Source: a bacterium UBP1_UBA4783 (GTDB lineage: Bacteria > Krumholzibacteriota > Krumholzibacteriia > Krumholzibacteriales > Krumholzibacteriaceae). From it: 64,000 nt of DNA. Positions within the stretch are counted from its first letter, which is position 1, and each line of letters opens with the position of its first letter. Shown here one piece after another: positions 5,804-31,755 of this stretch. The stretch spans positions 13,767 to 77,766 of the forward strand of contig DHHB01000012.1 of assembly GCA_002403075.1 (NCBI GenBank), written 5' to 3'. The translations under genes and the position numbers were made by a program. The notes under the pieces were generated by a model. The model had not been told where the DNA came from. It did not search any database and worked only from the letters and a program-made list of their open reading frames with translations.

Positions 5804-6090
5804 AAGTTACGCCAAGGCGCCGGCGGTCCTCGAATACCGTTCGCGGGTCAAGTCCCCGGAAATAGCGAGGGAACGACGCTCGAGCCGATCCAAAGAGAAT
5901 ATTGTAATCAATTAATTTAAAAGTCGTTACGTCACAAGAGGGGGGAGATTTTCGGCCGTCCGCCAATCGCCCGCTTGAGAGGAGCGGGAATTTGTCATAG
6001 CCTCTCGTGTGGCGGCGGTTGGTTGGCATGCACTTTGCGGTATTGATTCTGAACCATTTTCAGACCTCGGTCGGGAGCCGTATTCGAGAC

Positions 6091-15000: not shown

Positions 15001-18000
15001 GTGTCGTTCGAGGCGGCGGTCGAGACCGCCGCCGGGCTGTACGCCACGCTCGTCCTCGATCGCGGGGCGACGATCCTCAGCTTCGGCGACGCCGACGGCG
15101 ACACGTTTCGAACGGCTCTCTCCGCCGTTTCCACGAACGTTCTGCCGCCCGCGGCGCAGCGAACGCTCCTCTTCGACGCGAATACGATCGATCCCGCCGT
15201 CGCGCTCGGGAGACACTCCGCGTCGCTTCGGCTCGTCGGCGAGGAGAACGGCAATCCGTTTTCCCGCGTGCTGCCGCTCGCGCCCGATTCGATTCTCGTC
15301 GAGCGCGCGCCGCAGCTCAGCATCAGCCGTGTCGCGGTTCCCCCGTCGGTCACCCGATCGCAGACCGCGCCGTGGACCGTGAGGATGGTGCTCCGCAACA
15401 ACGGCGAAGCGTCCGTCGATCTCGACCTCTCCGAGGCCAAGACGTTCCTTTCCTTTACGATCATCGGCGCGGGCGACCGGACGTACGAGTACGCCGTCGC
15501 GAGGCCGGCGGCGCTCGCGGGGCGGGGCGGAACGGTGCTTCCGGGAGGAGCGATCGACAGCCTCGTCTTCACGATCACCGGGACCGGCTCGACTCCGGGG
15601 ATAGCGCTCGTGAACGGCACCGTGACGGGGACCGACGTCAACAGCAATCTCACCGTGTCGGACGATACGTATAACGGCGGATTCAGCCACGTCGCGGTCG
15701 AGCTGCCGGGCGAACCCGTCGTCGCCTCGAGCGCGCCCTCGCGGGCCACGGTGACGTCCGGACAGACGACCGCGTGGCAGATAGCCTGCGAAGTATGCAA
15801 CACCGGGGAGGCCGATCTCACTCTCGTGCCCGACAGCGCGCGCGTGTACCGCGACGACGGCGAACCTCTCGCGCACGAGCGCCCCGCCTCGTTCGTCGAG
15901 GGGGGGCTCGCCCTGCCGGGCGGCGCATGCCGCCATCTCCTGTTCTCGGTATCCCCGACGCCGGTGATTCCCGCGGGCGCCGACATCGTCCTCCACGCCC
16001 GCGTCGCGTTGGTCGAGAACAACAACGGAATACAGCGCTTCTTCGACACGCGCCTCGCCGGTTCGGGCTCGGGTTCGATCCGCGTGCAGTCGCCGGCGCT
16101 GCTTTCGATCGCTCTCGCCTCCTGCGTGTCGCCGCGCCGGCCCTACGTCAACGAGGGACAGCGGTTCTCCGTCGTCGTCGCGGCGGCGAACGGCGGCGAA
16201 GCGCGCGCCGAGAGCGTCCGTCTCGCGCTCGAGGGATCGGGCTCGTCGGCGATCGAGGATACGCTCGCCGTCATGGAGGCCGTCGCCGGCGGCGGCGCGG
16301 TTTCAGACACCTTTTTCGTCATCGCGGCCGGAGCGGGGGATGAGGTCTTCACGGCGCGCTTGCGCGGCGCCGTCGACGCGAACTCCGGGCAGGAGGATCT
16401 CGCGGCGTTCGCCTCAGCCACGGACGACACGGCGCTCGTCGTGATACAGGTTCCGGCCTCCCTCGCGGTGACCGCGGTCGCCCCGTCCCAGAGCGCCGTG
16501 AACGCGGGCCAGACGGTGGAGTGGACGGTCCGCGTGAGCCTTCGCAACTTCGGCGAGGCTCCCCTCGAGATCGATCCGCCCGCTCCGGCGGATGTGTCCT
16601 TTGCGATCGGCGGCGCCGCGGTCGGCGGGTATCTCGTCGTGGCGCCGGACGGGTTCGCGTCGGGAGTCACTCCGCTCGTCCTCGAGGGTGGCGCCTCGGA
16701 CAGCCTTATCTACCGGATCGCGGCGACCGGCCGGGATACGGGCACCGTCGACGTCGTCGCGGCATTCGATTGGCGCGACGGGAACGATCCGGCCGCGCCG
16801 CGCGTTCCCGCATCGGGGGGCTGCCAGGTGCGCGTGAAACCCCCGTCGGGGCTCAGGATACTCTCCGTGACGAGCGCCGCGCCGAACAACGCCGCGTTTC
16901 CGAATACCTCGATCGTCAACACCGGCCAGACGTTCACGGTCTCCGTGCGGGTCGAGAACACCGGCGGAGACGATCTCGACAGCGTGCTCGTGAGACTCGC
17001 GACGAACGGCGTCTCGGGCACCGTCGCCGCGGGCGATTCGATCGCCTACATGCCGTCGAGATCGGAGCGCGATTTCGTCTCTACGGTGACCGCCGCCCCG
17101 GCGCCCGCCGTCGAATATCTGCGCGCCTCGATCGTGAAAGCCGTTTCGGTCAACACCGGCGAGCGGGTGACGCCGGCGGAAGCCGTCGAATCGATCGAAA
17201 ACCTCCGCATCGAGCTTCCGGCGCTCCTCGCCTGTGTCGCGTCGGTCACGGCGCCCGCCGGCGCCGTCGACGACACGCTCTCGACCGGCCAGCGGTTCGT
17301 CGTGACGGCCGTCGTCGAAAACGAGGGGCAGGCGGGCATCGATACGACGGGGAGGATGACGCTCGTCCTGCCCGCCGGCATGGATCTCGCCGATCCGGGC
17401 GAGCCCCTCGCGAAGCGGTTCGCAGCGGGGGTTCCGCTCGCGTGGACGATCGTCGCGCCGGCGTCTCCTTCGCTCGATACCGTGCTCGCGGCGATCAGCT
17501 CGATCCCCGAGGACGCGAATATCGCTGCGCCGGCCGCGGTTCGAAACGCGGAGGCGCGCGTCGTCGTTTTCGTCGAGCCCGCGGCCCGCATCGAGAATTG
17601 CGCGGTGTCGCTCGCGGCGCCCCCGGGCGCGGTCGACGGCACGCTCTCCACGGATCAGGATTTCGTCGCCCGCTCGTCCTTCGTTCCGTCGGCGAACGCC
17701 GATTCCCTCTGGGTCGAGATCGATCCGCCGGCGGGCTTCTCCGTCGCGAGCGAGACCGCCAAGTACGTCGGGAGGGGAACTGGCGCCGCGGTCGCGCGCG
17801 ACTGGATCGTTCGCGCTCCGGTGAGCCCCGCGGCGGTCGATACGATCGCCGCCCGGGTCGTCGGCATCGACGTCAATTCGGGGGAACGCATCGCGCCGTG
17901 CCGGGCGGTCTTCGCGGTGCGGGTGGTCGAGAAAGCGGCGCTGTCCCTCGCCGGGGGGATCTCGGGGCCCCCCGAGGCGCTCGACGGAGTGGTCTCGGTG

Positions 18001-19128
18001 AATCAGGTTTTCACGGTCGAGGCGTCGGCGTCGAAGGCCGGCGAGGCCGGCGTCGATACGGCCGGCGCTCGGATCGAGCTCGTCCTGCCCGCCGGACAGG
18101 GGTACGCGCTCGACGGCGCTACCGAAACGTACCGGAAGCCGTTCTATCCGGGCGGGTCCGTCGCGTGGCGGATCCGCGCGCCGGGCGCTCCCACGGCTCC
18201 CGGCATCCTGCGGCTGCGGTTCGCCGAGCCGTACGCGAGGGACGTCAACACGAACCTCGCCTGCGCGATCTCGCAGGGCGAGGTCTTCCTGCCGGTGCAA
18301 ACGGAGGCCGGGGCCGTCCGCATGTCGAACGTGTCGGCCGCCGATTCCATCCCGCCGGTCGTCGTTCCCCAGGGAGCCTCCGGGGTGCCGGTTATGCGGG
18401 CGGCGCTGCGGAACGCGTCGAGCTACACGATCGGTCTCGACACGGTGTACGTCGCCGTCACGGACGGTCGCGGACGCCTCGTATCGCCGCCGTCGCGTCG
18501 CATCGCCGCTCTCGCGCTCGTCGCCGGAGGCGTCAGGTACGAGACGGCGGCTCCGGGGCACAACCCCGTTCCGATGGCGGTCGATCACGGTTTCGAGATC
18601 GGTCCCGGCGCCGCGGACACGATCCTCATCGTCGCAGACGTCGCGGAGGACGCCCCGCCCGGGGAGCTCCGATTCGAGATCGAGCGGAGCGCGGACGTGA
18701 TCGTTTCCATCACCCTCGACGGCGGGGGCGCGGGCGAACGAGTCGGCGTCGTGAACGAGCAGGGCGGCGATATCGCGGGCTCGTTCCTGAGCGGACCGCT
18801 CTCGGTCATGAGCGCGCGGTTCGAGGAGTACGTTCACAACTACCCGAATCCGTTCCGCGCCGGTTCCCAGGAAACGCGTATCTGCTATTTCCTGACGCGG
18901 AACGCGGGCGTATCGATACGCATCTACGATCTCGCCGGCAGCCTCGTCTGGACGAAGGAGATTGCAGCCGGCGCTCCGGGCGGCACCGGTTCCCCGGAAG
19001 GGATCATGCACGAGATTGCATGGGACGGTCGCAACGCCAGAGGCGAGATCGTCCGAAACGGCGTCTATCTCTGCAAGCTCGAGGCGGGCTCGCAATCGGC
19101 GCTCTTCAAGATCGCCGTCGCGAAGTGA
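6091..19128 (+). CDS. giant (4345 aa) secreted adhesin-like protein: signal peptide, tandem Big_1 Ig-like repeats, further Ig-like domains, ~17 CARDB-like repeats, T9SS-type C-terminal sorting domain
   Basis: ATG at 6091 gives the signal peptide MNKRSNIRPAALVFGLFICMLAAAGAQA. The table ORF starts at GTG 6007. Six 101-aa repeats (FVAGPFDP..VDKTTI.ADG.D...VTVRDA.GNP..G..V.IEC.G.GN) fall within a longer series of Ig-like domains. Later ~120-aa repeats carry RN.G.. motifs typical of CARDB. The last ~95 aa match the TIGR04183-like CTD: YPNPFRAGS...RIYDLAGSLVW...WDGRNARGEIVRNGVYLCKLEAGSQ. Confidence 0.85.
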   Translation: MNKRSNIRPAALVFGLFICMLAAAGAQAGPGSGAASIAPSAAVAAGSAGTWTITYTAAETFVAGTIEIEIPDGWSAPQLSNSSARGFVTASSMGTLGTPALSISGRNIVVSVAALEVNQTVDVVYGDASIHQSGAAVAQSNPQTGVQFLVRSDSNGPGRMPIASSPRIDIVAIIAAQLVFVTPPRVFPADGESGAIGLATLDEFGSPSPVEADLRIHLASSAPTGRFSAAPGAGFSETDTVTILAGTDTAFFYYRDPVAGIKTITASAVEQGWIDPQQTVTVEPGEPFRLRAVPADTLAIAGEYVRYRLRIEDSLGNPSTASSSQTISLFGQPGSFYATADHSTPISQIVIPAGVSSISLDYRNTVKALSTPYILGFFDQDGTPPTLEAASASIYIDHAAYSPVASDVGSADPLAVADGADPVPLVAYVRDAFFNGVDGATVVFMATGSGNSISQPGGVTGSNGRANGSMTSTVAGQKTVTAHVGGVYIDHSVVATFVAGPFDPSVSDVAVDKSVAAADGADSISVTVTVRDAEGNAITGSVVTLECTGSGNAIRQPVGATGADGTARGSVVSTTAEAKTIRARANGLYLAEQAAVTFVAGPFDPDNSTVAIDKTTIVANGVDAGIVTVTVRDASGNPVSGRTVTIECSGGDNAIQQPAVPTGADGRAVGSVASTRAESKTVAARVDGVLVTETAPAIFVAGPFDANVSNLEVDKTTIVADGVDSVLVTATVRDANGNPIAGRAVTIECNGTGNTIRQPAGATDALGRAVGSVKSSVAAGKTITARVDALYLADAVPVVFVAGPFDPSVSGLGVDKTTITADGADSVLVTVTARDALGNPISGRTVAIECTGSGNAIHQPVGFTGADGRAVGSVKSTVAEAKTIRGRVDGALVAAAAAVSFVPGPFDPGVSEIQVDKTTIIADGVDAVSVTVRVRDADANPIAGALVAIECSGSGNVITQPVGVTGADGRAVGNVKSTVAEIKSVRARAGGVPLDDIVPVAFTAGALHHFIVTHAGSATAGVPASVTVDARDANGNKLTSFAGAVRVYPLRASAADEATWGLGNAAGSIVSETQDTVTYQFVFADAGDAELLITDRKVESVTIGASSGGVTSLSAAPLIVGPAAADSVFVVSGNGQRAVVDTPVPLPLVVAVEDRFGNRVSGVTVSFAVTAGGGYVDASVALPGQQTTAVTGIQGTASCEHWRLGTASGAGVNAVTASISTGGTREAYFTAIADHGPIASIVLAPASKPVTVNTETIVTATLRDAFGNLVFGQYVTMYIKDAPDGFLGAAPGSATEELSLWMRRGMSDSTGTVSVAYAAPATAGAQDVIDAYHNSIPAADVVDAVYSTVSSGATDLRATLLSGPTSQAGIAFSFLVEAVDGNGNRDLSNTSHIVLEPPPGGGFVFSLVDFGAPATEADLSAGAVVIYGRGTQAGAWQIAARDAAEFLAPAQCAVEIVANETVSSYAVAAPASATAGADFTLSAEARDAYGNRVLTAGYNIDFRAVRASDSTQAASRALSVASGTLANGLYSGANFRYEAAELIRIEVTSASNAAAGYSGAIAVDNAAAYLLAKIGGDSAGVAAGDSLRLRARVFDAFGNAVDGQNVFFTVQEGDGRVSSPLAVTDASGAAWVWFRTDTIRGTNRVRAAILDANPEGLETQSYTVATIPRSEVDRVELALSGTSFRAGEIFAGNVAAYDVYGNLIDTDSGTQLRPAALRASVDFNPEIMTLEAGRSSFAAFDSVAGANRIEILSLAGDTLSAPGASYTIAPAQAYRITEISGDTAGVTVGAGVELRVRVRDRYGNAVAGEIVRFQITSNLGGAPALWDGTGAPNDGIVLTGAGGAASCFLVTDPNAGLNTVTASILDADPPALERVVFEVGTIAGTIARFDVVPDGFAKKAGESFAVQIVAYDLNGNVAADDDTTRVDLGSDGSAAYAVNPVVLSGGRATANASDTVAERLVLRARTLAGGATSYSDTIVVSPEAPSGVIAFASVTPDTITANGTSVSSITTRPIRDMYGNVVSPGTLVRVTPSLGSVGSDDQDPSTPDTKERRTEASGAVSVFIRSASSPGASNVVFQSLSGSAAGTASVIFAPPPSCFYAGYLTPRHLVPTEAVELRCSAANVSATGVSLATATTISFADSAGHAYEAHLAAPMYLRGSSADTLRFASVAVPTGMLGGTYTPRVSLVGTDRYGYAYRGEFAAGSNSISISDVAIESVVAEKAILSRGDTFTVDVRVHNGGGSTVAVNDITLNYSNGLYGLVGSWDPPLPSNLAPGGVRVFRRSIFVLGYSPLGPDTIDASVTAQANGSQVQDPSAYPNVAAVVIQSAASIGYVAGTLAPDTVSQGQTHSFAVSFRNSGQAAVILNAADTRLGFTDGADAVSISLGFEGALPGNRTTELVFPPVEVPASVDAGSWPVTVRLRGTENGGHLDTTLVLSDQIRVVSPAALSYGSGTLAPPAVSKRSTVSFEAGIVNAGGATVMCDPDSTRFTFTDGSLAYTATLDPARGRSIGPGSSTLYFRAVAIPAGIAVGSYQPSMRIRGFENGLPFAADLALSDPVGVQEPSQLAITSTTVFPSPLVTADQSAPWFAAVQVQNNGGAAVRLESLSMRLLAGPVDVTGQCVLTPIDFVPNVDSLLGGESRAIAVRLDDNPSNGMTTGTIVIESAIAGRDLNSGAALLATTEYGGKGSYLVQTPASLVFTSISPSVDTVTALQTKDWILAVAVRNAGQSDMQIDLSPAATFVSFSTSGDFATIPPAALAGGGTLLEGGATDTLLWRVDRTGSVAGSCLIAATVRAVESNSGRAFVASSGAQGVRGNALVQTPAVLGIVGITPLQNPVTISQERSWSVEMEVRNTGQSDVALLLARVDSTRVAIPEGSGFVIGNPSSLAGGGTVLRGGAAGRLVFAVSTTGTAAPGAREIVGSVLAVESNSDRRVFASRAEGGDTVTLQLRPEPAYAAGSLAPTAASSGTSVSFEAAVETAAGLYATLVLDRGATILSFGDADGDTFRTALSAVSTNVLPPAAQRTLLFDANTIDPAVALGRHSASLRLVGEENGNPFSRVLPLAPDSILVERAPQLSISRVAVPPSVTRSQTAPWTVRMVLRNNGEASVDLDLSEAKTFLSFTIIGAGDRTYEYAVARPAALAGRGGTVLPGGAIDSLVFTITGTGSTPGIALVNGTVTGTDVNSNLTVSDDTYNGGFSHVAVELPGEPVVASSAPSRATVTSGQTTAWQIACEVCNTGEADLTLVPDSARVYRDDGEPLAHERPASFVEGGLALPGGACRHLLFSVSPTPVIPAGADIVLHARVALVENNNGIQRFFDTRLAGSGSGSIRVQSPALLSIALASCVSPRRPYVNEGQRFSVVVAAANGGEARAESVRLALEGSGSSAIEDTLAVMEAVAGGGAVSDTFFVIAAGAGDEVFTARLRGAVDANSGQEDLAAFASATDDTALVVIQVPASLAVTAVAPSQSAVNAGQTVEWTVRVSLRNFGEAPLEIDPPAPADVSFAIGGAAVGGYLVVAPDGFASGVTPLVLEGGASDSLIYRIAATGRDTGTVDVVAAFDWRDGNDPAAPRVPASGGCQVRVKPPSGLRILSVTSAAPNNAAFPNTSIVNTGQTFTVSVRVENTGGDDLDSVLVRLATNGVSGTVAAGDSIAYMPSRSERDFVSTVTAAPAPAVEYLRASIVKAVSVNTGERVTPAEAVESIENLRIELPALLACVASVTAPAGAVDDTLSTGQRFVVTAVVENEGQAGIDTTGRMTLVLPAGMDLADPGEPLAKRFAAGVPLAWTIVAPASPSLDTVLAAISSIPEDANIAAPAAVRNAEARVVVFVEPAARIENCAVSLAAPPGAVDGTLSTDQDFVARSSFVPSANADSLWVEIDPPAGFSVASETAKYVGRGTGAAVARDWIVRAPVSPAAVDTIAARVVGIDVNSGERIAPCRAVFAVRVVEKAALSLAGGISGPPEALDGVVSVNQVFTVEASASKAGEAGVDTAGARIELVLPAGQGYALDGATETYRKPFYPGGSVAWRIRAPGAPTAPGILRLRFAEPYARDVNTNLACAISQGEVFLPVQTEAGAVRMSNVSAADSIPPVVVPQGASGVPVMRAALRNASSYTIGLDTVYVAVTDGRGRLVSPPSRRIAALALVAGGVRYETAAPGHNPVPMAVDHGFEIGPGAADTILIVADVAEDAPPGELRFEIERSADVIVSITLDGGGAGERVGVVNEQGGDIAGSFLSGPLSVMSARFEEYVHNYPNPFRAGSQETRICYFLTRNAGVSIRIYDLAGSLVWTKEIAAGAPGGTGSPEGIMHEIAWDGRNARGEIVRNGVYLCKLEAGSQSALFKIAVAK
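7276..9093 (+). repeat. six in-frame tandem copies of a 303-bp unit (Big_1 Ig-like domain) inside the giant gene
   Basis: The motif ttcgtcgcgggtccgttcgatcc recurs at 7579, 7882, 8185, 8488 and 8791 (303-bp period). The first and last copies are degenerate at DNA level. Confidence 0.8.
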
Positions 19129-21035
19129 TGAGCATGAGAACGAAACGACGCAGCACGGCTATCTGGATTCTCGCGCTCCTTCCGCTCCTCGCCGGGCCGG
19201 TCGCCGCGCAGGAAGGAACGGGGGGGACGCGCTCTATTTTCGCGCTCGGGGCGGGCTCGCGCGCCATCGCCATGGGGGGCGCCTTTTCCGCCGCCGGCGA
19301 CGACGCATCGGTCCTCCTCTACAATCCGGCGGCGCTCGCGCTCAACCGGTACACATCCGTTCTCGCGACCCACGCCCGGCTCTTCTCCGGCTGGAGCGAC
19401 GCGGGGTACGATTTCCTCGGATTCGTCTATCCGACCGTTTCGGCGGGCGCCTTCGGCGCGGGCTTCATGACGGCCGGGACGGACGGCATCCGGGGATTCG
19501 ACGAATGGAGCCGCGAGACCGGCGAGCTCACCTATCGCGAGAGTCAGGCGGTCATCGCCTACGCGTACACCCTTCCGTGGCGGTACGCGGGCGCGGTCAC
19601 CGCGGGATCCTCGGTCAAGATGCTCAGTCAGCGCGTCGGGGACTATTCGGATACGGGCACGGGCGTCGACGTCGGATTCGTGTTCCGGCCGCGCTGGGTC
19701 GAGGGGCTCAGCCTCGGCTGCAACCTTCAGGATATCGTCGGCGCCGAGATCAAGCTCGTTTCCGTGAGTGAACCCGTCGATCGCACGATCATGATCGGGG
19801 CGGGGTACGCCCGCGCCTTCGGAAACGGTTCGGCGATCCTTCTCGCGGCGCAGATGGACGCGCCCGAACGAGGCGACTCGCGGTTCCGCGCGGGGGTCGA
19901 GTACCGGTTCCGCGGCCTCTTCGCGGTCCGCGCCGGTTACGACGGCGAGGGCGTGACGGCGGGCGTCGGCGTCGGCTGGCGCGGCTTCGGCTTCGACTAC
20001 GGCTACATGAGCCGGGAGGACGCCGGCAGCACGCATCCCCTCTCGCTGTCCGCCCGCGTCGGCTCGTCGGTCGACGATCGGGTGCGGATACGCGAGGAAC
20101 GGCGGCTCGCGGAGCAGGAACGCCGGATCCAGCAGATACTCTCGAGCCGGATCGCGGGCCATATCGCCGAGGCGGAGCGGTTCCGGCTCGAGGGAGCGCC
20201 CGCGAAGGCGCTCGACGAGCTCAAGATCGCCCTCGAATACGATCCGACGAATCGGGCGGTCGCCGACACGATCGCCGTGGTCGAGCGCGCGATCCTCGCC
20301 GCCGAACAGGAGCGCACGCGAAACGCGGAGAAATCCGCGCTCATCAACCAGCACTTCCGGCTGGGTCTCGAATACTACGGCACGGGGGATTACATCAGGG
20401 CGCGCACCGAGTGGCGGAGCGCGCTCGAGATCGATCCGGAGAACGCGCAGGCCGCGGAGTACCTCGGCGCGACCGAGGACAAGCTCGGGAGTCTCGCGGA
20501 TCAGCACCGGACGCGCGCGCTCGATCTCGAGCAGCGCGGCCAGCTCGCCGCGGCGCTCGGCGAGTGGAACATGGTGCGGACGATCGCGCCCGAGTCCGCC
20601 GAAGCGAACGCCGCCGTGCAGCGTCTGACCGCGCGCGTCGACGAGCTGAGCCGCGATTACCTCACCGCCGCCAAACGTCTCCGTGTCGCCGAGCTCTACG
20701 AAGGCGCCGTGAAGGCGTTCGGCGAGGGGCGGTACCCCGACGCCGTGCGGCAGATCAGAGAGCTGCTCGGCATCGATCCGAACCACGCGGAGGCCCGCAC
20801 GCTGCTGCGCCGCGCGGAGCGGCGTATGACCCCGCTCGACGACGCCGAAAAGGCGGCGATCCGCGCGCTCTACCTCGAGGGCATGAGGCATTTCACGAAC
20901 GGCGATTACCTAAAGGCCGTCGAACGGTGGCAGCGCATCCTCGAGATCGATCCCGACAACGAGAGCGTGCTGAGGAATATCGATGAGGCCTCGAAGCGGC
21001 TCCGCAACAGCGGCGCGGCGGGAGGCGCACGATGA
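19128..21035 (+). CDS. PorV/FadL-like outer-membrane beta-barrel fused to C-terminal TPR repeats
   Basis: ATG overlaps the giant gene stop (TGATG). Signal peptide. IFALGAGSRAIAMGGAFSAAGDDASVLLYNPAALA is a PorV/FadL-like N-terminal motif. The C-terminal 300 aa are TPR-like helical repeats (LEYDP, LEIDPEN, LGIDPNH, LEIDPDN). Confidence 0.7.
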   Translation: MSMRTKRRSTAIWILALLPLLAGPVAAQEGTGGTRSIFALGAGSRAIAMGGAFSAAGDDASVLLYNPAALALNRYTSVLATHARLFSGWSDAGYDFLGFVYPTVSAGAFGAGFMTAGTDGIRGFDEWSRETGELTYRESQAVIAYAYTLPWRYAGAVTAGSSVKMLSQRVGDYSDTGTGVDVGFVFRPRWVEGLSLGCNLQDIVGAEIKLVSVSEPVDRTIMIGAGYARAFGNGSAILLAAQMDAPERGDSRFRAGVEYRFRGLFAVRAGYDGEGVTAGVGVGWRGFGFDYGYMSREDAGSTHPLSLSARVGSSVDDRVRIREERRLAEQERRIQQILSSRIAGHIAEAERFRLEGAPAKALDELKIALEYDPTNRAVADTIAVVERAILAAEQERTRNAEKSALINQHFRLGLEYYGTGDYIRARTEWRSALEIDPENAQAAEYLGATEDKLGSLADQHRTRALDLEQRGQLAAALGEWNMVRTIAPESAEANAAVQRLTARVDELSRDYLTAAKRLRVAELYEGAVKAFGEGRYPDAVRQIRELLGIDPNHAEARTLLRRAERRMTPLDDAEKAAIRALYLEGMRHFTNGDYLKAVERWQRILEIDPDNESVLRNIDEASKRLRNSGAAGGAR

Positions 21036-24000
21036 AGCGCCGGGAACGCATACGGGATCGGGAAACCTTCCACCTCGAGGTTCCGGCCGACGAGAACAAC
21101 CTCAGCGAGGTCCGGGACTTCATCGCCAAAATATGCGACCGCGCGGGGTTTTCGAAGAGCGAGACGAACAACACGAAGCTCGCCGTCGACGAAGCGTGCA
21201 CGAACATCATCAAACACGCGTACAAAGAAAAGGGCGGAGACATACGGATCGACGTTCAGGCGTCGCCCGGCACGGTCGAGATCAGCATCTTCGACCGGGG
21301 CGAGCCCTTCGACTGGTCCAAGGTGAAAGAGCCCGATCTCGACCACTACGTCGAGATCGGCAAGAAGGGCGGCCTCGGGATCTATCTGATGAACCGCCTC
21401 ATGGACAAGCTCAGCTATTCGGCGTCGCCGGCGGGAAACCGCCTCTCCATGACGAAGCGGGCCGCGGCCGCCGCGGCCTCGCATATGCCGCTCTTCGATT
21501 CGATCATACGGCCGAAATGGACCTCGACGCTGCGCTTCAAATTCGCGATGCGGGCCGCGCTCGGGTTCTTCGGCCTCATCATGTTTCTCTGGGTGATCCT
21601 CTTCTACCGGCAGACGCACGATCTTCGCGACCGGGTCGCGGACGCCTGGCTCCAGCGCAAGCGCATCGCCGAGATCATCGCGAGCTCGAGCGTCGGCGCG
21701 CTCACGAAGGACCCGTACGACGTGAGCGGTCTCGAGCTCAGCACCGACGCGATTCCGCGTCAGATGCGGCGCGCCCCCGAGGTGAAATACATCCGCGTCG
21801 TGCACGAGGACGGACGAATCTTCGCTTCGAACCGGCAGGAGGAGTTTCTCACGGCGTACGCCGTTCCCGCCGAGGTTCGCGAGCTCGAACGCGGCGCCGC
21901 CTTCCGCTCCGTGCGCGACGACAGCCTCGGATCGATCCGCGAGTTCCATCAAACGGTGTATCTCACCGATTCGGAGCGGGGCCAGACGACGGCGATCGGA
22001 CGCGTCGTCGTCGGCGTTTCCGAGCCCCTCGTGACGGAGGACATCATCGACCCGCGGCCCATGATGACGCTGCTCCTCGTCGGCGTCTTCGCCGCGGGGG
22101 TCGCGCTCCTCTACCTGCTCGTCGCCATATTCGTGCGGCCGATCCAGGCGCTCACCGACGGCGTCCGGGCGATCGGCGAGGGATCCCTCAACGACGAGAT
22201 TCAGATCACGGGACCGCAGGAGATCGGCGAGATCGCGCGCGCCTTCAACGAGATCACTTCGAAGTTCCGCGACGCGCAGAAGAACGTCGTCGAGCAGGAA
22301 CGTCTCCACAAGGAAATGCAGGTCGCCCAGGAGATCCAGCAGACCCTTCTTCCGAAACGCGTGCCGGCGATCGGCGGCTACGACATCGCGAGCCTGTACC
22401 GTGCCGCCAAGGAGGTCGGCGGGGACTATTACGACTTCGTGCGGGTCGACGACGACACGCTCGGCGTCGTCGTGGCGGACGTCTCCGGCAAGGGCGTGCC
22501 CGGTTCGCTCGTCATGACGATGATCCGCACGGCCCTCCGCATGGAGGCGCGCGGAAACCACTCCGCCGCGGAGGTCATGGCGCGCATGAACGACTTCGTG
22601 ACGGAAGACATGAAGAAGGGCATGTTCGTCACGATTTTCTACTCGATCCTCGATTCGAAGAACCGCATCATCTCCTACGCTTCGGCGGGTCACAATCCGA
22701 TGATCCTGTACCGCGCCGAGACGGACGAGACGTATTTTCTCAATCCCCGCGGTTTTCCCGTCGGCATCAAACTGCCCGACGACACGCTCTTCCGCCGCTC
22801 GATCGACGTCGAGAAGATCAAGCTCAAGAAAGACGACATGCTCGTCATCTACACGGACGGCGTGACCGAGGCGATGAACGGGGATCGGGATCAGTACGGC
22901 GAGGATCGCCTCATCCGGCTCATCAAGGACTGCGGACGCCTCTCGCCCCAGGAGTTCATCGACCGTCTCAACGCCGACATCAAGGGCTTCACCGGCGATC
23001 AGCCCCAGAACGACGACATCACCGTCGTCGCGATCAAGGAAAAGCTCATGGCGGACGAGGTGCTCTACGGGATCCGCCGGAAGCTGCTCGATCTCGTCGA
23101 GGTCCAGGGGGTTTCGGTCGCCGAGGCGTGCCGGATGATGAGGGTTTCCCCCTCGACCTACTACCGCTACAAGAAGCGCCTCGTGGAGCTCGGAGATCGC
23201 GGGCTCCAGGACAAGACCCTGCGCCGCGAAGTCGATATCAGGCGAGTCAGCGTCGAGCAGCGAAAGGGCATTCTCGAGATCATCCGCGCGAATCCGCGCT
23301 TCGGCGCGAAGAAAATAGCCGCTCTGTACAACGAGGGGAAGGAAGAGCGGGCGCACCTTTCCGCGGCGATCGTCTACGACGAGCTCAAGCGTATCCGGCT
23401 GAACACCTACGAGATGCGGCTCGAGTACCTGCGCCGCAACCGTCTCATCACCGACGACGAATTCAAGACGCTCATGGCCGCCCACGGCAGCCGGCCGCGC
23501 GAGTCCGTCGAGGCGCCGGCGGGCGGGGAGATCGTCCCCGCCGACGCGGCCGCGGAGACGGAACCGGAAGCGCACAAGGCGAAGCACGTCCCCCGTGCGC
23601 CGCGAGCCGCCGCCGCGCCGGCGCGCCGCCGTTTCGCCCGCGAGGCGTTCGAGACGGGCGAGGGAACAGCGATCGAGGTCACGTCCGAGGAGCTCGACGG
23701 CGGCGCCGTCGCGCTCCACGTGGCGGGACATCTCGATTCGTCTTCGGCGGGCGAGCTCGAGGGGATCCTCGAGAGCGTGCACGAGTACGGATACCGGAAC
23801 ATCATCGTCGATCTCGCCGCGGTGACCTATATTTCGAGCGGGGGCTGGGGCATCTTCACGGGGCGGGTGAAAACGCTCCGCGAAGCCGACGGCGACGTGG
23901 TGCTCGTCGGCATGTCCTCGGAGGTATACGACATCTACGAGCTGCTCGGCTTCCAGCAGATCATCATGCAGTTCCCGTCCGTCGAAGAGGCCGTCGCCTA

Positions 24001-25243
24001 CATCGGCCTGCCGCTGGCCGAACGCCGGAGCCGCTTCGAGAAAGCGTCCCGCGAGGCGGCTCCCCTCGAGCCGGCCGAAACGCCGGTCGCCTCTGGAGAA
24101 GCGGCGGCCGGAAGCGAAGTAATCGCCGAGCCGGAGTCGCCCTGGGCGGCGCTCAAGATCGAAGCGGGGACGGTCGGCGGCCAGGGAGAGATCACGGTGC
24201 TCTATCTCGACGGCGTCGTCGATACGGTAAGCTGCGTGAAGCTCCGCGGCGTTCTGGACGGGCTCGTCGACCGCGGCGCCGTGAAGATCGTTCTCGACAT
24301 GTCGCGGGTCGAGTACGTGAGCTCGAGCGGCTGGGGCGTGTTCGCCTCGCGCATACGGGATATCAGGCTGCGAGCGGGAGACATAAAGATATTCGGCATG
24401 GATCAGGAAGTCGACGGAATATTCCACATGCTCGGATTCGATTCGATCATGCGCTCCTTCGGAATTCTCACCGAAGCGATCGAGGATTTCAAGAACGACG
24501 CCACCGCCCTCGCGGCGGAGGACGAAACGTTCGACGAGGAATCGCCGGAGGCGGCGGTCGCGGCGTCGGAGCGCGCGCCTGAGCCTGCCGCCGCGGCGCT
24601 CGCGATCGCTTCCGCCGGCGGGACGGGACGCGAGGGAAGGACCGTCGTCGTGAGGATCGACGGCGCGATCGACTCGTCGACCTCGGAGGCGTTCGAAGCC
24701 GAGCTCGACGCGCGATCCGCCGAGCGTCCGAAGAACCTCGTGCTCGATCTCAGCAGGCTGGTTTACATATCGAGTGGCGGATGGGGTATCATCATCAGAT
24801 ACATGCAAAAGCTCGGCGAAACCGGCGGCCGCGTCGTCGTCGCCGGCATGAACTCGATCGTTCTCAAGATATTCCGCGATCTCGGCTTCGAGCCGCTGAT
24901 CCCGCAGTACGGAACGCTCGAAAAGGCGCTCGAGGAGCTCGCCCCCGGGATGCGGGAGACCGAAGCGACTCCGGAAGAGGAGGCGTCGGCGCCGGTCGCT
25001 GCGGCTCAGCCCGGGGCCGAGGTCCGGAAGCACGATCTCGCCGACGCGCTGCTCGGCGCTCCGGATATGGCGCCGCTCACGCCGCTCGAGCCGGTCAAGG
25101 ATACGGAGAAGGTCATCTTCATCGATTTCAAACGGCGCACGGACGTGCGCGAGGACAAGGACAAGCGCATTAAGCGGCTCGGCTGGGACGAGTACGGCAA
25201 ACGGCTGCTCGATTCCGGCCGGAAGCCCCGGCGCACGAAGTGA
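21032..25243 (+). CDS. 1403-aa fusion protein: RsbW-like anti-sigma-factor kinase (GHKL) domain, 2 TM, HAMP, PP2C SpoIIE/RsbU phosphatase, IS3-type HTH segment, three STAS (anti-sigma antagonist) domains
   Basis: Single uninterrupted ORF; the ATG overlaps the upstream stop. aa 10-140: DEACTNIIKHAY and GGLGIYLMNRLMDKL (N/G boxes of RsbW/SpoIIAB). Hydrophobic helices at aa 166-192 and 344-367. aa 368-420: HAMP-like. aa 425-672: GGDYYDF, DVSGKG, SAGHNP, YTDGVTEA, DDITVV (PP2C). aa 675-815: VSVAEACRMMRVSPSTYYRYKKR (IS3 OrfA-like HTH). Three repeats of ..DL..V.YISSGGWG.. (STAS) at aa ~880-990, 1040-1150 and 1205-1300. Confidence 0.8.
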   Translation: MKRRERIRDRETFHLEVPADENNLSEVRDFIAKICDRAGFSKSETNNTKLAVDEACTNIIKHAYKEKGGDIRIDVQASPGTVEISIFDRGEPFDWSKVKEPDLDHYVEIGKKGGLGIYLMNRLMDKLSYSASPAGNRLSMTKRAAAAAASHMPLFDSIIRPKWTSTLRFKFAMRAALGFFGLIMFLWVILFYRQTHDLRDRVADAWLQRKRIAEIIASSSVGALTKDPYDVSGLELSTDAIPRQMRRAPEVKYIRVVHEDGRIFASNRQEEFLTAYAVPAEVRELERGAAFRSVRDDSLGSIREFHQTVYLTDSERGQTTAIGRVVVGVSEPLVTEDIIDPRPMMTLLLVGVFAAGVALLYLLVAIFVRPIQALTDGVRAIGEGSLNDEIQITGPQEIGEIARAFNEITSKFRDAQKNVVEQERLHKEMQVAQEIQQTLLPKRVPAIGGYDIASLYRAAKEVGGDYYDFVRVDDDTLGVVVADVSGKGVPGSLVMTMIRTALRMEARGNHSAAEVMARMNDFVTEDMKKGMFVTIFYSILDSKNRIISYASAGHNPMILYRAETDETYFLNPRGFPVGIKLPDDTLFRRSIDVEKIKLKKDDMLVIYTDGVTEAMNGDRDQYGEDRLIRLIKDCGRLSPQEFIDRLNADIKGFTGDQPQNDDITVVAIKEKLMADEVLYGIRRKLLDLVEVQGVSVAEACRMMRVSPSTYYRYKKRLVELGDRGLQDKTLRREVDIRRVSVEQRKGILEIIRANPRFGAKKIAALYNEGKEERAHLSAAIVYDELKRIRLNTYEMRLEYLRRNRLITDDEFKTLMAAHGSRPRESVEAPAGGEIVPADAAAETEPEAHKAKHVPRAPRAAAAPARRRFAREAFETGEGTAIEVTSEELDGGAVALHVAGHLDSSSAGELEGILESVHEYGYRNIIVDLAAVTYISSGGWGIFTGRVKTLREADGDVVLVGMSSEVYDIYELLGFQQIIMQFPSVEEAVAYIGLPLAERRSRFEKASREAAPLEPAETPVASGEAAAGSEVIAEPESPWAALKIEAGTVGGQGEITVLYLDGVVDTVSCVKLRGVLDGLVDRGAVKIVLDMSRVEYVSSSGWGVFASRIRDIRLRAGDIKIFGMDQEVDGIFHMLGFDSIMRSFGILTEAIEDFKNDATALAAEDETFDEESPEAAVAASERAPEPAAAALAIASAGGTGREGRTVVVRIDGAIDSSTSEAFEAELDARSAERPKNLVLDLSRLVYISSGGWGIIIRYMQKLGETGGRVVVAGMNSIVLKIFRDLGFEPLIPQYGTLEKALEELAPGMRETEATPEEEASAPVAAAQPGAEVRKHDLADALLGAPDMAPLTPLEPVKDTEKVIFIDFKRRTDVREDKDKRIKRLGWDEYGKRLLDSGRKPRRTK

Positions 25244-25247: not shown

Positions 25248-26024
25248 ATGAAGAAGTACGCTGTCATGACGATGAAGGGCGGGACGGGAAAGACGACGAC
25301 CGCCGTCTGCCTTTCGCACGGCCTTTCGCTCGCGGGGAAGCGCGTCCTCCTCGTCGACTGCGATCCGCAGCGGAGCGCCGCGACGAGCTTCGGCGTCAAG
25401 GGAGAGCGCGGGCTCGCGGAGCTCCTGACCTCGGGCGAAGTCGACATCCTGCAGGTGCGCGACAACCTGTTCTTCATCGATTCGGGCGGCCGGCGTCTCG
25501 CCGAGGTCGAGCTCGTTCTCGGCTCGCACGAGAACCGCGAGCGCCGTCTCTCCGAGGCTCTCAAGCATCTGAAGGGATGCGATTACGTGATCTGCGATTG
25601 CTCGCCGTCGCTCAACCTCATCAACATCAACGCGCTCGTATACTGCGACGAAGTGATCATACCCGTTTCGATGGATTATCTCGCGGAGAGGGGGGCGACG
25701 GAGACGGCGGGGATCATCGAGGAGATCCACGCGTTCAACAGCCGGAAACCGATATCCTTCCGGCTGCTCCCGACGTTCTACGACTCGCGCACGCGGCTCG
25801 CGCACCGCGTCCTCGAGGATCTGCGAGAGAGGTTCGGCGACCGCCTTCTCACGACGGTCATACGCATGAACCAGGCGATCAAGGAAGCGCCCGGCCAGCA
25901 GAAGACGATTTTCGAACACGCGCCGCTCTCGCGCGGCGCGTTCGACTATTACCATCTCACCGAGGAGATTCTCGGCCGCGATCGTCCGGGCGAGAGCCGC
26001 GTCGGCGAGTCCCAGGGAAGCTGA
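25248..26024 (+). CDS. ParA/MinD-family P-loop ATPase (orphan, no parB)
   Basis: Deviant Walker A MKGGTGKTTTA, DCDPQ, CDCSPS motifs. Starts 5 nt after the partner-switching gene. Confidence 0.85.
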   Translation: MKKYAVMTMKGGTGKTTTAVCLSHGLSLAGKRVLLVDCDPQRSAATSFGVKGERGLAELLTSGEVDILQVRDNLFFIDSGGRRLAEVELVLGSHENRERRLSEALKHLKGCDYVICDCSPSLNLININALVYCDEVIIPVSMDYLAERGATETAGIIEEIHAFNSRKPISFRLLPTFYDSRTRLAHRVLEDLRERFGDRLLTTVIRMNQAIKEAPGQQKTIFEHAPLSRGAFDYYHLTEEILGRDRPGESRVGESQGS

Positions 26025-27243: not shown

Positions 27244-27612
27244 ATGGACAAGCTCGCCATAGACGTAGAATACGTCGATAACGTCGTCGTCCTGAAGCTT
27301 CGCGGCATCGTCGACTCCGGAACCGCGCAGTTTCTCGAGGATACGTTCAACGAGCTCGTCGCGGCGAGCACGGTCCGCATCGTCGCCGATCTCGGCGATG
27401 TGAACTACATAAGCTCGGCCGGCTGGGGGATATTCGTGGGGGAGATCAAGGGGATACGCCAGCGCGGCGGAGACATCAAGCTCGCGGCAATGCCTCCCGA
27501 CGTGAGGGAGGTGTTCGAGCTCCTCGAGTTCAGCACGCTTTTGCGGCCGTACGGGACGCGCGAGGAGGCGATCGCCGCGTTTACCGCGCATCAGAATACG
27601 AAAACGTCATAG
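27244..27612 (+). CDS. STAS-domain anti-sigma-factor antagonist (SpoIIAA/RsbV-like)
   Basis: VNYISSAGWGIFVGEIK motif. 122 aa. GGAGAGGA RBS. Confidence 0.8.
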   Translation: MDKLAIDVEYVDNVVVLKLRGIVDSGTAQFLEDTFNELVAASTVRIVADLGDVNYISSAGWGIFVGEIKGIRQRGGDIKLAAMPPDVREVFELLEFSTLLRPYGTREEAIAAFTAHQNTKTS

Positions 27613-27634: not shown

Positions 27635-28072
27635 ATGGAAGGGATCAACGTATCGTTCTCGAAGCCCGAGGATAATCCGGACGTGTCGGTGCTGTCCGTT
27701 CAAGGGTACGTGGATACCACGACGTCGGCCGAGCTCGAGGAGAGTCTGAAGAGGCTGCTCAAGAAAAACCGATTCAACATCGTCATCGATCTCGCCGGCG
27801 TGAACTATATCTCATCGGCCGGATGGGGCATCTTCATCAGCGAAATCAAATCGATCCGGGAGACCGGCGGCGATCTCAAGCTCGCCTCGATGGTCGCTGA
27901 CGTGTACGAGGTGTTCGAGCTCCTCGAGTTTCAAACGATCCTCGAGAGCTACGATACCGTCGCCGAAGCGGTGAAATCGTTCGGCGCGCCGGGAGGAGAC
28001 GCCGGATCGGAGAAGCCGGAAAGCCGCGCCGGCGCCAAGGTCGGCAGCACGCACGGACCGAAGACCGACTAG
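27635..28072 (+). CDS. STAS-domain anti-sigma-factor antagonist (second copy)
   Basis: VNYISSAGWGIFISEIK motif. 145 aa. Paralog of the previous gene. Confidence 0.8.
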   Translation: MEGINVSFSKPEDNPDVSVLSVQGYVDTTTSAELEESLKRLLKKNRFNIVIDLAGVNYISSAGWGIFISEIKSIRETGGDLKLASMVADVYEVFELLEFQTILESYDTVAEAVKSFGAPGGDAGSEKPESRAGAKVGSTHGPKTD

Positions 28073-28204: not shown

Positions 28205-30367
28205 ATGGACCTGGATATCGCTCTGCGGTTCACCATCTGGACGACGGCTCTCGCCGTGGGGCTCGTCGTTCTTTCCGTCGCCGCGTACCGCCGCACGGCC
28301 CCGCCTTTGCCCCCCGCGCGGCGCGCGCTGCTCCGGGCTCTTCGCGCCGCGAGCTTCGCGGTCCTCGCTCTCCTCGTCGTCAATCCGGCGATCGTCATGA
28401 CGCGTACGGAAACGCGCCGGCCGCTCGTGATCGTGCTTCTCGACCGGTCGCGCAGCATGGAAACGCGCGACGCCGGCGGCCTTCCGAGGCTCGACGCCGC
28501 CCTCGAGGACGCCGAGCGCCTGCGGCGCGAGATCTCGCGGAGACAAGCGGAGGTCGTCGTCCTCCCGTTCGCGGACGCCCTCGCGCCGGATGCCCTTCAG
28601 CCGGGCGGGACGGTGGCGCCCGATCGGGACGGCACCGATATCCGGGGCGCCCTCGACGGCGCGGGGGATCGATACCCCGGCGCGGTCGCCGCGGTCGTGC
28701 TGCTGAGCGACGGCCGGACGACGCGCGGAATGGTCGCGAGCGGGAAAGGCGCGTACGCCCCCGTTTTCGCGGTCGGATACGGAGACACCGCCCGAAGCGC
28801 CGACGTCGCCGTCGAGGAGGTCGTCGCGGATCGCGTCGCCTATCGGGGAACGACGGTTCCCGTGGAGGCGGTCATACGGGCCGAGGGCTTTCGCGGAAGC
28901 GTCGTCGAGGTGCGTCTCATCGAAGATGGAAAACGCGTCGCCGCCGTCGTGCTCGCGGTGCGCCGGGACAGCGAGCTTCTCGCCGCCGCTTTCGACTACC
29001 TTTTCGAGCGCGAGGGGGCGCGCCGTCTCACCGTCGAGGCGATTCCCGGCGGGCCCGAGCGCGACCGCGGCAACAACAGCGAATCGATCCGTATCGACGT
29101 GCGCAAGGAGAGGATTCGCCTGCTCTACGTGGACAATCTCGCGGATTGGAACTCGGCGTTCCTCCGCGATCTCGTCGGGCGGTCGGAGCGGCTCGAGGGG
29201 GAGATCGCGCTCGGGGCCGCCGGACGGGGATTCACCCTCGATCCGGGGGGAGCGCGTTGGACCTTTCCGCGGGCCTCATCCGGGCTCGCCCGCTACGATC
29301 TCGTTATCGTCTCGGACGACGCGCGTCTCTTCGCCGAGAGGGAGAACGTCGAAACGCTCGTTCGATATGTCGAGGAGGGGGGTAGCGCGCTCTTTCTCGC
29401 CGACGAGGGATCGCCGATGGCGCGGGGCGGGGAGTCTTTCGGATTGATCGAGCCCGCCCTTCCCGTCCGGCGTGCGGGAACGCCGCGCATCGAGTACGGC
29501 GAGCATTTCGTGAAAGTATCGGCCGAGGCGGCCGGGGAGCGGTTCGCCGCGATGCTCGGTTCGGAGCGCGCGCTCGCCGCGATGCCGCCGCTTCCCGCCG
29601 GCATCGCGGGGGTGGTTCCGAGCGCGGGCGCCGAGACGCCGTTCACCCTCGCGAGCGGTTCGAGCGCGAGGGCGTTCCTCGCGATCGAACGCCGGGGGAG
29701 CGGTCTCACGGCCGCCGTGCTCGGATTCCCCCTGTGGCGATGGAGGCTCGCGGGCGCCGAGGGAGCACGCGTGTACGAATCCTTTTTCGGCGGACTCGTT
29801 CAGTACCTCGCGGAGGGCGCGAAATCGCCCCCGCTCGCCCTCGACGCCGATCGCACGGTGTATCGAAGCGGCGACCGCGTGCGGCTCACCGCCTCGATCG
29901 GGGAGAGGGACGCGCCCGGGACGCTCCGCGGCGAGCTGCGCCGCGCCGGGGACGCGCCGGCGGATGTGGCCGCCACGTTCCTGTTCGAGCGCGACGCGCG
30001 CCGGCGGGGCGTCTATCGCGCGTCGATCGAGGGTCTCCCGCCGGGATCGTACAGCGCCGTCGCGGTCGAAGGGCCGGGGACCGCCGTCGCGTCGAGCCCC
30101 GTCGCGTTCGCCGTCGAACCGGCTTCTGTGGAGTTACTCGATCTCTCGAGGGACGGCTCGCTCCTCGCTCGAATCGCCGCCGAGTCGGGCGGCGTCTGCG
30201 TCGAGCGCGGCTCGATCGATTCGGTCGTCGCGGCGTTCGATCTCTCGGGCCGGAGCGTGGACCGGCGGAGCGCGCGCGAGCTGCGCGGAAGCGTGCCCGC
30301 CCTGATCGTTCTCGTCGCCCTTCTCGGAGCCGAGTGGATCGCCCGGAAAGCGTGGGGGCTCGTATGA
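28205..30367 (+). CDS. BatA-like membrane protein with N-terminal double-TM and von Willebrand A domain
   Basis: Two N-terminal hydrophobic helices. VIVLLDRSRSM (MIDAS DxSxS start of a vWA domain). C-terminal TM (ALIVLVALLGAEWIA). GGGAGAA RBS. Confidence 0.6.
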   Translation: MDLDIALRFTIWTTALAVGLVVLSVAAYRRTAPPLPPARRALLRALRAASFAVLALLVVNPAIVMTRTETRRPLVIVLLDRSRSMETRDAGGLPRLDAALEDAERLRREISRRQAEVVVLPFADALAPDALQPGGTVAPDRDGTDIRGALDGAGDRYPGAVAAVVLLSDGRTTRGMVASGKGAYAPVFAVGYGDTARSADVAVEEVVADRVAYRGTTVPVEAVIRAEGFRGSVVEVRLIEDGKRVAAVVLAVRRDSELLAAAFDYLFEREGARRLTVEAIPGGPERDRGNNSESIRIDVRKERIRLLYVDNLADWNSAFLRDLVGRSERLEGEIALGAAGRGFTLDPGGARWTFPRASSGLARYDLVIVSDDARLFAERENVETLVRYVEEGGSALFLADEGSPMARGGESFGLIEPALPVRRAGTPRIEYGEHFVKVSAEAAGERFAAMLGSERALAAMPPLPAGIAGVVPSAGAETPFTLASGSSARAFLAIERRGSGLTAAVLGFPLWRWRLAGAEGARVYESFFGGLVQYLAEGAKSPPLALDADRTVYRSGDRVRLTASIGERDAPGTLRGELRRAGDAPADVAATFLFERDARRRGVYRASIEGLPPGSYSAVAVEGPGTAVASSPVAFAVEPASVELLDLSRDGSLLARIAAESGGVCVERGSIDSVVAAFDLSGRSVDRRSARELRGSVPALIVLVALLGAEWIARKAWGLV

Positions 30368-31665: not shown

Positions 31666-31755
31666 TCCGCGGACATCCGCGAACATATTTCTCTTGAAAA
31701 CGCTCGGGCGATCTGCTTGAATCGATCCCGGCTCGTGTGAAGGGTGGTGGTCGTG

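Follow-up and report, generated by a model that had tools for sequence, protein, structure and literature searches.

In the canonical partner switches RsbU/RsbV/RsbW and SpoIIE/SpoIIAA/SpoIIAB, the kinase, the PP2C phosphatase and the STAS antagonist are separate polypeptides and the output is a sigma factor. In a 64,000-nucleotide stretch of contig DHHB01000012.1 (hereafter, the window), which derives from an uncultured Krumholzibacteriota/Latescibacterota bacterium, an initial annotation made from the sequence pointed to one open reading frame (ORF; 21032..25243, + strand), in which these components appeared to be joined in a single membrane protein. The locus therefore raises the question of whether this fusion is real, how it compares with known switches and what it might control. 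We report that the fusion is real and conserved, and that the protein also possesses a helix-turn-helix (HTH) region, which the initial annotation had not noticed. Furthermore, we consider it probable that the protein serves as a bifunctional partner-switching sensor anchored in the membrane, in which the kinase and PP2C phosphatase act on STAS domains in response to a periplasmic signal; as a candidate output, we favor a neighboring adhesin gene cluster.

The reading frame and its domains

The ORF listing and the translation give 1403 codons without an internal stop. One possible explanation of so long a frame is an artefact, in which separate kinase, phosphatase, insertion sequence (IS)-derived HTH and STAS genes might have been fused by read-through or by a frameshift that arose in sequencing or assembly. 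High-GC DNA yields many long spurious ORFs, and the window (G+C content, 67%) contains many of these, one of which, on the opposite strand, has 1552 residues. Moreover, the HTH region is similar to the N-termini of IS transposases. However, the G+C content at the third codon position (GC3) is 0.81-0.90 in one phase across the ORF, and the phase shifts exactly at both ORF ends. A search of 5.8 billion proteins gave more than 120 matching clusters, and at least 113 full-length homologues (1377-1575 residues, 45-97% identity) possess the same Pfam set. These homologues were drawn from NCBI, JGI, ENA and Logan assemblies: thus, independent assemblies encode the same single ORF. The linker lengths differ between family members (for example, 51-131 and 47-223 residues) and the reading frame is always kept. 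The HTH region carries invariant residues and lacks a transposase catalytic domain. Because at least 113 full-length homologues share the architecture, we can in practice exclude an artefact of frameshift or assembly, and we regard its probability as negligible. The initial annotation had warned of an ORF split by a frameshift or stop and of missing catalytic residues: neither was seen, the homologues keep one ORF, and the catalytic residues are invariant in an alignment of 114 family sequences, to which all statements on invariance below refer. The named sources of the homologues are metagenome-assembled genomes (MAGs) of Candidatus Krumholzibacteriota/Krumholzibacteriaceae or Latescibacterota. 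The sequences of this family are already public under generic names only ("anti-sigma factor antagonist" or "STAS domain-containing protein").

Domains were assigned with Pfam and NCBIfam, transmembrane (TM) helices by hydropathy and folds by AlphaFold2 (AF2). From the N-terminus, the order is kinase, TM1, periplasmic domain, TM2, HAMP, PP2C, HTH, three STAS domains and a basic C-terminal motif (Table 1). The Pfam profiles and hydropathy agree with the initial annotation in placing a kinase, two TM helices, HAMP, PP2C and three STAS domains in one chain, and the extracytoplasmic loop, which had been put at about 150 residues, measures 156 residues by hydropathy. The periplasmic sensor is the least conserved folded part of the protein (conservation 0.26-0.37), and its match to sCache_3_2 (residues 208-338, E = 2.4e-4) lies below the Pfam cut-off. 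In Pfam, HAMP was placed at residues 364-407, and the linker between HAMP and PP2C carries an invariant E..VA..IQ..LLP motif. The C-terminal motif, DKDxxI[KR]xxGWxEYGx[KR]L, precedes a tail rich in K and R. Its residues W1385 and G1389 are invariant, and this end of the protein has a net charge of +7. The motif might form an amphipathic helix that binds the membrane, or it might be a contact peptide for the adjacent ParA-like ATPase, and we favor neither.

The HTH region matches HTH_28, HTH_23, HTH_29 and HTH_32 in Pfam. It also matches positions 2-113 of the 284 positions of the IS481 transposase profile NF033577 (E = 2.2e-15), with a score of 57 bits against a cut-off of 224. No rve/DDE catalytic domain was matched in the protein by Pfam. 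Thus, IS481/IS630 transposases resemble this region at the sequence level in their N-terminal bipartite HTH, whereas the DDE/rve domain of the transposases has no counterpart here and the HTH region is conserved inside a signaling protein across a wide family. The candidate that the region is the remnant of an IS insertion was rejected, because its residues are invariant and it is part of the conserved single ORF across the homologues. A separate model of residues 672-822 is all-helical with two three-helix units, and the predicted local distance difference test (pLDDT) value is 83.9. The region has a net charge of +11, with many invariant Arg and Lys residues, and is the sole strongly basic folded domain of the protein; the net charge of its neighbor, STAS1, is -14.

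An AF2 model of residues 1-1200 was made with the family alignment. The pLDDT values are about 90 for the kinase, 88-92 for the periplasmic domain, 80-88 for the HTH region and 85-90 for STAS1 and STAS2. In this model, TM1 runs on into the long first helix of the periplasmic domain, which also contains another helix and a sheet of five strands, and a long helix (residues 396-436) connects HAMP to PP2C. The linkers at residues 820-878, 1010-1036 and 1159-1200 have pLDDT values below 35: the STAS domains hang on disordered linkers of 45-80 residues, which are rich in Ala, Glu and Pro. Because the pLDDT of PP2C is 50-60 and the predicted template modeling score (pTM) of the model is 0.35, the domain-domain geometry is unreliable. 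It should be mentioned that no part of the protein is better conserved in the family than PP2C (conservation about 0.9), yet its pLDDT (residues 440-670, model ma1716f2f451c) is far lower than that of the flanking domains (85-92). This low value may come from a shallow alignment of closely related sequences or from the absent dimer partner.

Conserved residues and comparison with known switches

The profile HATPase_c_2 matches residues 17-142 (E = 4e-31). The closest kinase alignment is with B. subtilis RsbW (6m36, E = 2.4e-18), followed by SpoIIAB, and the N and G boxes are matched. The invariant kinase residues are E54, N58 and H62 in the N box, D88 and G90 in G1, and G113-G116 in G2. The NCBIfam RsbW models score 82-89 bits against equivalog cut-offs of 145-155. 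For PP2C, SpoIIE/PP2C matches residues 473-669 (E = 2e-51) and the closest PDB sequence is M. tuberculosis Rv1364c (3ke6, E = 4.6e-15). The motifs GGDxxD, DVxGxG, YTDG and NDDxT are matched to Rv1364c, where our protein reads GGDYYD, ADVSGKG, YTDG and NDDIT, and D465, D468, D483, G486, D541, D609, G610, D661 and D662 are invariant.

The three STAS domains together gave E = 2e-52 in Pfam. The initial annotation had ascribed the motif YISSGGWG to all three. This holds for STAS1 (from residue 933) and STAS3 (from residue 1245); STAS2 reads YVSSSGWG (from residue 1095), and the phosphorylatable Ser is kept in all three. The invariant serines are S935/S936, S1097/S1098 and S1248. When STAS1 was aligned with SpoIIAA, the second Ser of YISS (S936) fell on Ser58 and D902 fell on Asp23. 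D902 and D1064, which correspond to SpoIIAA D23, are invariant in the family, and the invariant R28 of the kinase falls on the position of SpoIIAB Arg20. SpoIIAB R20 and SpoIIAA D23 act in the complex, as established from the structures 1TH8/1TID. The equivalent contacts have been discussed for SypA-SypE (PMC10120452). Two further STAS proteins are encoded at the locus as free single domains. The equivalents of SpoIIAA S58 and D23 are common to all five STAS domains, which are mutually 30-39% identical, the two free ones being 51% identical to each other. In NCBIfam, the STAS domains score as SpoIIAA/RsbV-type anti-sigma antagonists (TIGR00377, TIGR02886) and not as RsbS/RsbR. By their invariant residues, the kinase and PP2C are predicted to be catalytically competent and the STAS domains competent as acceptors. 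Phosphotransfer to the STAS Ser, and its dephosphorylation, are likewise predicted from residue conservation.

The protein shares its three domain families with the canonical RsbU/RsbV/RsbW and SpoIIE/SpoIIAA/SpoIIAB systems, and the catalytic, acceptor and interface residues are conserved. In contrast to these systems, its parts form one membrane-anchored chain, and it has no associated sigma factor gene. Fusion of a sensor, PP2C, kinase and STAS in one polypeptide has a precedent: Rv1364c (MursiF) of M. tuberculosis is described as PAS-PP2C-GHKL kinase-STAS in one chain (PMC7693655; also PMC12143880). Its STAS domain is reported to be autophosphorylated and autodephosphorylated (PMC7693655, with reference to Sachdeva 2008, Greenstein 2009 and Misra 2019). 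Rv1364c is soluble with an N-terminal PAS domain, the order PAS-PP2C-kinase-STAS, a single STAS domain and no HTH region. Our protein possesses an N-terminal kinase, a TM-flanked periplasmic sensor with HAMP, an HTH region and three STAS domains with a tail, and two more STAS domains are provided in trans. Because the domain order, membrane anchoring, HAMP, HTH region, number of STAS domains and tail differ, our protein is an independent fusion and not an orthologue of Rv1364c. The initial annotation had considered that the complete fusion was undescribed. Rv1364c is already all-in-one, so that this part does not stand; the present architecture was not found in a limited literature search, nor were tandem antagonist-type STAS domains. 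The search for tandem or multiple STAS antagonists brought up only papers on SLC26 transporters.

Two systems with separate components were also compared. SypE of Vibrio fischeri is a kinase-REC-PP2C protein that acts on the STAS protein SypA, its downstream component (PMC10120452). It possesses an N-terminal RsbW-like Ser kinase, a central regulatory module and a C-terminal PP2C; in this layout, our protein has the kinase at residues 10-146, the regulatory module at 173-418 and PP2C at 441-672. In the SypE/SypA system, the conserved Ser of STAS is phosphorylated, and a surface/biofilm function is governed without a sigma factor (PMC10120452). However, SypE has at its center a cytoplasmic receiver domain that takes its input from a histidine kinase, whereas the central module of our protein is TM-periplasmic-TM-HAMP, in which Pfam gave no Response_reg match. 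Furthermore, SypE has neither an HTH region nor tethered STAS domains, SypA being a separate protein. In SiaABCD of Pseudomonas aeruginosa, which controls biofilm formation or aggregation, the components are the HAMP-PP2C protein SiaA, the kinase SiaB and the switch protein SiaC, which is phosphorylated and is called a STAS protein (PMC9239204). SiaA is similar in being a membrane HAMP-PP2C phosphatase, but the SiaA model NF038263 matches residues 334-668 with 81.3 bits against a cut-off of 700: by this score, our protein is not a SiaA orthologue. In addition, SiaABCD is made up entirely of separate proteins, and its output is a diguanylate cyclase, for which our locus has no counterpart.

Because fused switches (Rv1364c) and sigma-independent outputs (SypA and SiaC) are already known, no current concept is overturned. 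The protein represents domain accretion within a known scheme and not a new principle: it is a conserved, unusually complete signaling fusion with an unexpected HTH region and a testable genomic association. The word "entire", which the initial annotation applied to the module, was too strong, since a sigma factor partner is neither part of it nor encoded close by, two STAS proteins come from genes of their own and the HTH region was overlooked.

Gene cluster and wider family

The positions of the domains and of the neighboring genes are summarized in Table 1.

Table 1. Domains of the fused protein and genes of the surrounding cluster (positions in the window)
Feature	Position	Strand	Basis or remark
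Fused partner-switching protein, whole ORF	21032..25243	+	ATG start, 1403 aa + stop
RsbW-type GHKL serine kinase, aa 10-146	21059..21469	+	Pfam, RsbW alignment, invariant boxes
TM helix 1, aa 173-191	21548..21604	+	Hydropathy 2.15; AF2 continuous helix 167-225
Periplasmic sensor domain, PAS/Cache-like, aa 192-347	21605..22072	+	Weak sCache_3_2, AF2
TM helix 2, aa 348-366	22073..22129	+	Hydropathy 2.74
HAMP and long helical linker to phosphatase, aa 367-440	22130..22351	+	Pfam, alignment, AF2
SpoIIE-family PP2C/PPM phosphatase, aa 441-672	22352..23047	+	Pfam, Rv1364c alignment, invariant Asp
Bipartite paired/transposase-type HTH region, aa 675-806	23054..23449	+	Pfam, NCBIfam, AF2
STAS1, aa 880-992, YISSGGWG	23669..24007	+	Pfam, SpoIIAA alignment
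STAS2, aa 1038-1152, YVSSSGWG	24143..24487	+	Pfam, family alignment
STAS3, aa 1198-1302, YISSGGWG	24623..24937	+	Pfam, family alignment
Conserved basic C-terminal motif, aa 1372-1403	25145..25240	+	Family alignment
Giant 4373-aa Big_1/Invasin_D3 repeat protein, type IX secretion system (T9SS) type A C-terminal sorting domain	6007..19128	+	
PorV/PorQ-family outer-membrane barrel, C-terminal TPR repeats	19128..21035	+	
ParA/MinD/BcsQ-like P-loop ATPase	25248..26024	+	Deviant Walker A KGGTGKT
TPR protein, 384 aa	26044..27198	+	
Free single-domain STAS protein, 122 aa, NYISSAGWG	27244..27612	+	
Free single-domain STAS protein, 145 aa, NYISSAGWG	27635..28072	+	
720-aa membrane protein, weak VWA_2 match only	28205..30367	+	
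DUF2092/thioredoxin-like gene	about 30400-31665		Between 720-aa membrane protein and lamin-tail gene
Lamin-tail-domain protein	31744..33456	+	

The giant protein, which is encoded two genes upstream by the gene that opens the conserved cluster, contains at least seven Big_1 and at least seven Invasin_D3 repeats, and TIGR04183 matches its last 199 residues (26.8 bits against a cut-off of 23). The next gene encodes a PorV/PorQ protein, in which NF033709 matches residues 39-308 (96 bits against a cut-off of 90) and the TPR part is about 330 residues long. The stop codon of the giant gene overlaps the start codon of the PorV/PorQ-TPR gene (TGATG), and the stop codon of the latter overlaps the ATG of the fusion gene (ATGA). 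The ParA-like gene begins 4 nt past the stop codon of the fusion gene, and the two free STAS genes, of the same motif type as the fused STAS domains, lie about 2 kb downstream. Two split relatives (L006 and L007) have a single STAS gene, whose closest match is the second of these free genes (27635..28072). PADLOC gave no match to a defence system. Upstream of the giant gene, about 1.1 kb (positions 4880-6007) carries no convincing coding signal and is presumably the regulatory region of the operon.

The same nine genes, in unchanged order, surround homologues of 47-69% identity in four other contexts (L001, L003, L004 and L005). The ParA-like gene is 54-80% identical beside the close relatives in these four and in L007, and 39% identical in L084; it is absent from the contexts of L006 and P0141. 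Homologues of the giant protein (3500-4550 residues) precede the relatives in other MAGs. The genes for the 720-aa membrane protein and the lamin-tail protein are part of the syntenic block in L001 and L003-L006; in the window, the thioredoxin-like gene is inserted between them.

To define the wider family, residues 1-1200 were compared with 1.84 billion cluster representatives, and hidden Markov models for each domain, made from the family alignment, were then applied together with Pfam. The conserved unit is a core of about 800 residues, kinase-TM-sensor-TM-HAMP-PP2C-HTH, and the C-terminus is variable. The core is followed by three STAS domains and the tail in the present family; in other relatives it is followed by two STAS domains, one STAS domain, TPR repeats or no extension. 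A relative with two STAS domains (P0128) lies in a giant-protein/TPR/ParA context like that of our protein. In six others (P0134, P0141, P0149, P0152, P0198 and P0211), the core is followed by a long linker that ends in TPR repeats; one of these (P0141) is preceded by genes for a giant protein and a TPR protein, and a separate STAS gene comes after it. In L006 and L007, which share the adhesin/PorV-TPR context, the core is 44-48% identical and ends after the HTH region, and the free STAS gene or genes come next. Relatives of about 670 residues without the HTH region (kinase-TM-HAMP-PP2C) also exist. Because the core is conserved while the fused part varies among 0, 1, 2 or 3 STAS domains or TPR repeats, the triple-STAS fusion is the accretion of one lineage onto an older membrane kinase/phosphatase/HTH protein. 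By Rosetta-stone logic, the alternative fusion of STAS or TPR to the core indicates joint function of the core with both the STAS proteins and the TPR protein. The core alone, the core with one, two or three STAS domains and the core with TPR constitute a comparative set for asking why signaling components fuse.

Contigs were also scanned with PP2C-derived patterns. The matches listed were mostly PP2C-only relatives and canonical split operons and are not a census of the family. Among unrelated MAGs, L009 encodes STAS and then an RsbW-like kinase in one ORF (9925-11241), and PP2C-kinase fusions stand beside free STAS genes in L043, L050, L055 and L056. In L047 and L031, separate small genes form canonical split operons.

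Proposed mechanism and its alternatives

Sequence and comparison show the domain set, the catalytic residues, the topology, the disordered tethers and the synteny, and from these we infer the mechanism. The most economical reading is that the kinase and the phosphatase act on the protein's own STAS domains. The RsbW-type kinase, which lies close to the inner face of the membrane, would phosphorylate S936, S1098 and S1248 as well as the corresponding Ser in each of the two free STAS proteins. A signal from outside the cytoplasm, passed on by HAMP and the helical linker, would turn a dimeric PP2C on or off, a model already put forward for other PPM phosphatases with N-terminal regulatory domains; for those linked to HAMP, PAS, GAF or REC domains, dimerisation through crossing helical linkers has been predicted (PMC12143880). 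The ratio of phosphorylated to unphosphorylated STAS would then set the binding partners of the STAS domains or of the kinase. Through tethering, the substrate would be supplied locally and in stoichiometric amounts. With five acceptor domains for each enzyme pair, the response could be graded or thresholded. The 45-80-residue linkers are long enough to bring each STAS domain to either of the catalytic domains, whether of its own or of a neighboring protomer.

Because the gene is translationally coupled in a conserved adhesin cluster, we favor control of the production, secretion or placement of the giant surface adhesin as the output. This control could be exerted by the protein's own HTH region on DNA or by TPR or ParA-like partners whose binding depends on STAS, in analogy to SypE/SypA (PMC10120452) and SiaABCD (PMC9239204), where surface or biofilm functions are controlled without a sigma factor. 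The output is the weakest part of the explanation: its candidates are the HTH region, the ParA-like ATPase, the TPR protein and the cluster of the adhesin. In a more elaborate version, which we hold to be speculative and rather improbable, the protein would be a self-contained switch with a built-in output, in which phosphorylation of its own STAS domains gates the HTH region, the recruitment of the ParA-like ATPase by the C-terminal motif, or both, and so controls the transcription or the subcellular placement of the adhesin. If so, the sensor, writer, eraser, substrate and effector would be united in one protein with no sigma factor.

Several observations weigh against the proposed switch and its output. 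The evidence that links the protein to the adhesin is synteny, and a distant TPR-fused relative (L085) stands outside an adhesin context. No sigma factor gene or other recognized output gene is present in the conserved cluster or the 64-kb window. In the 1.1 kb upstream of the giant gene, no convincing operator was found, only weak promoter- or terminator-like matches and short repeats. Compared with STAS1 and STAS2, STAS3 shows far lower conservation; therefore, the three STAS domains may not be equivalent. The AF2 model, with the low values given above, is silent on kinase-STAS and PP2C-STAS docking and on action in cis or in trans. When the HTH model was compared with the PDB by Foldseek, there was no match with E < 0.001 (best E, 0.099; TM-score, about 0.3), and phmmer gave no meaningful match of the HTH region to PDB sequences.

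The HTH region might itself be the effector, the protein being chiefly a membrane-tethered transcription factor that binds DNA, for example at its own promoter, while acidic STAS1 covers or exposes the basic HTH region depending on its phosphorylation. In that case, the gating of DNA binding would be the sole task of the kinase, phosphatase and sensor. That the HTH region is kept across the wider family even where no STAS is fused, that it is rich in invariant Arg and Lys and that its sequence resembles the DNA-binding N-terminus of IS481/IS630 transposases are consistent with this idea, as are the top-ranked folds in the Foldseek comparison, namely the paired domains of Pax5 and Pax6, TnsB and the DNA-binding domain of SETMAR (mariner). 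However, these fold matches are not significant, no operator-like repeat precedes the operon, the relatives of about 670 residues dispense with the HTH region, HTH domains can also make protein contacts and the charge masking is pure conjecture. We therefore think this alternative rather unlikely. A classical anti-sigma function, modeled on RsbW/RsbV/sigmaB and SpoIIAB/SpoIIAA/sigmaF, is unlikely: here, the RsbW-like domain would hold a sigma factor, encoded elsewhere, at the membrane until dephosphorylated tethered STAS domains displace it. Although the kinase is nearest to RsbW and SpoIIAB, with the equivalent of SpoIIAB R20, which binds both sigma factor and antagonist, invariant, and although the NCBIfam models of anti-sigma B and anti-sigma F match in part, the RsbW scores lie far under the equivalog cut-offs and neither the window nor the nine-gene cluster encodes a sigma factor. 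Rv1364c is reported to bind SigF in vitro (PMC7693655), but the SypE/SypA and SiaABC switches have outputs other than sigma factors (PMC10120452, PMC9239204).

Another possible arrangement is a stressosome-like scaffold modeled on RsbR/RsbS holding RsbT, in which the three tethered and two free STAS domains would form a higher-order complex that holds the kinase, and phosphorylation would release a component rather than exchange partners one for one. Several STAS domains per kinase, the divergence of the STAS paralogues (30-39% identity), which suggests specialized roles, and the ParA-like ATPase and TPR proteins of the cluster, which would suit a localized assembly, speak for such a scaffold. 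Nevertheless, we consider it very improbable, because the STAS domains are of the SpoIIAA/RsbV type, the kinase is nearest to RsbW with RsbT not among the matches, and PP2C is fused in the same chain instead of being recruited. If the membrane-anchored switch acting on its own and the free STAS domains is correct, it would provide a compact, complete phospho-switch in one chain, with sensor, kinase, phosphatase, several substrates and perhaps the effector, useful for studying the effects of tethering and substrate multiplicity. For the giant T9SS-type adhesin clusters found in uncultured Krumholzibacteriota/Latescibacterota, it would also offer a first point of access to their regulation.

Two further features were noted elsewhere in the window. 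A DUF4388 (PatA-N-like) protein is encoded at positions 13-534 (+). A histidine kinase (HisKA and HATPase_c) is encoded at 55990-57960 (+), followed by a PAS-HisKA ORF without the ATPase domain at 58422-59144 (+), and this pair may be a split or truncated sensor kinase.

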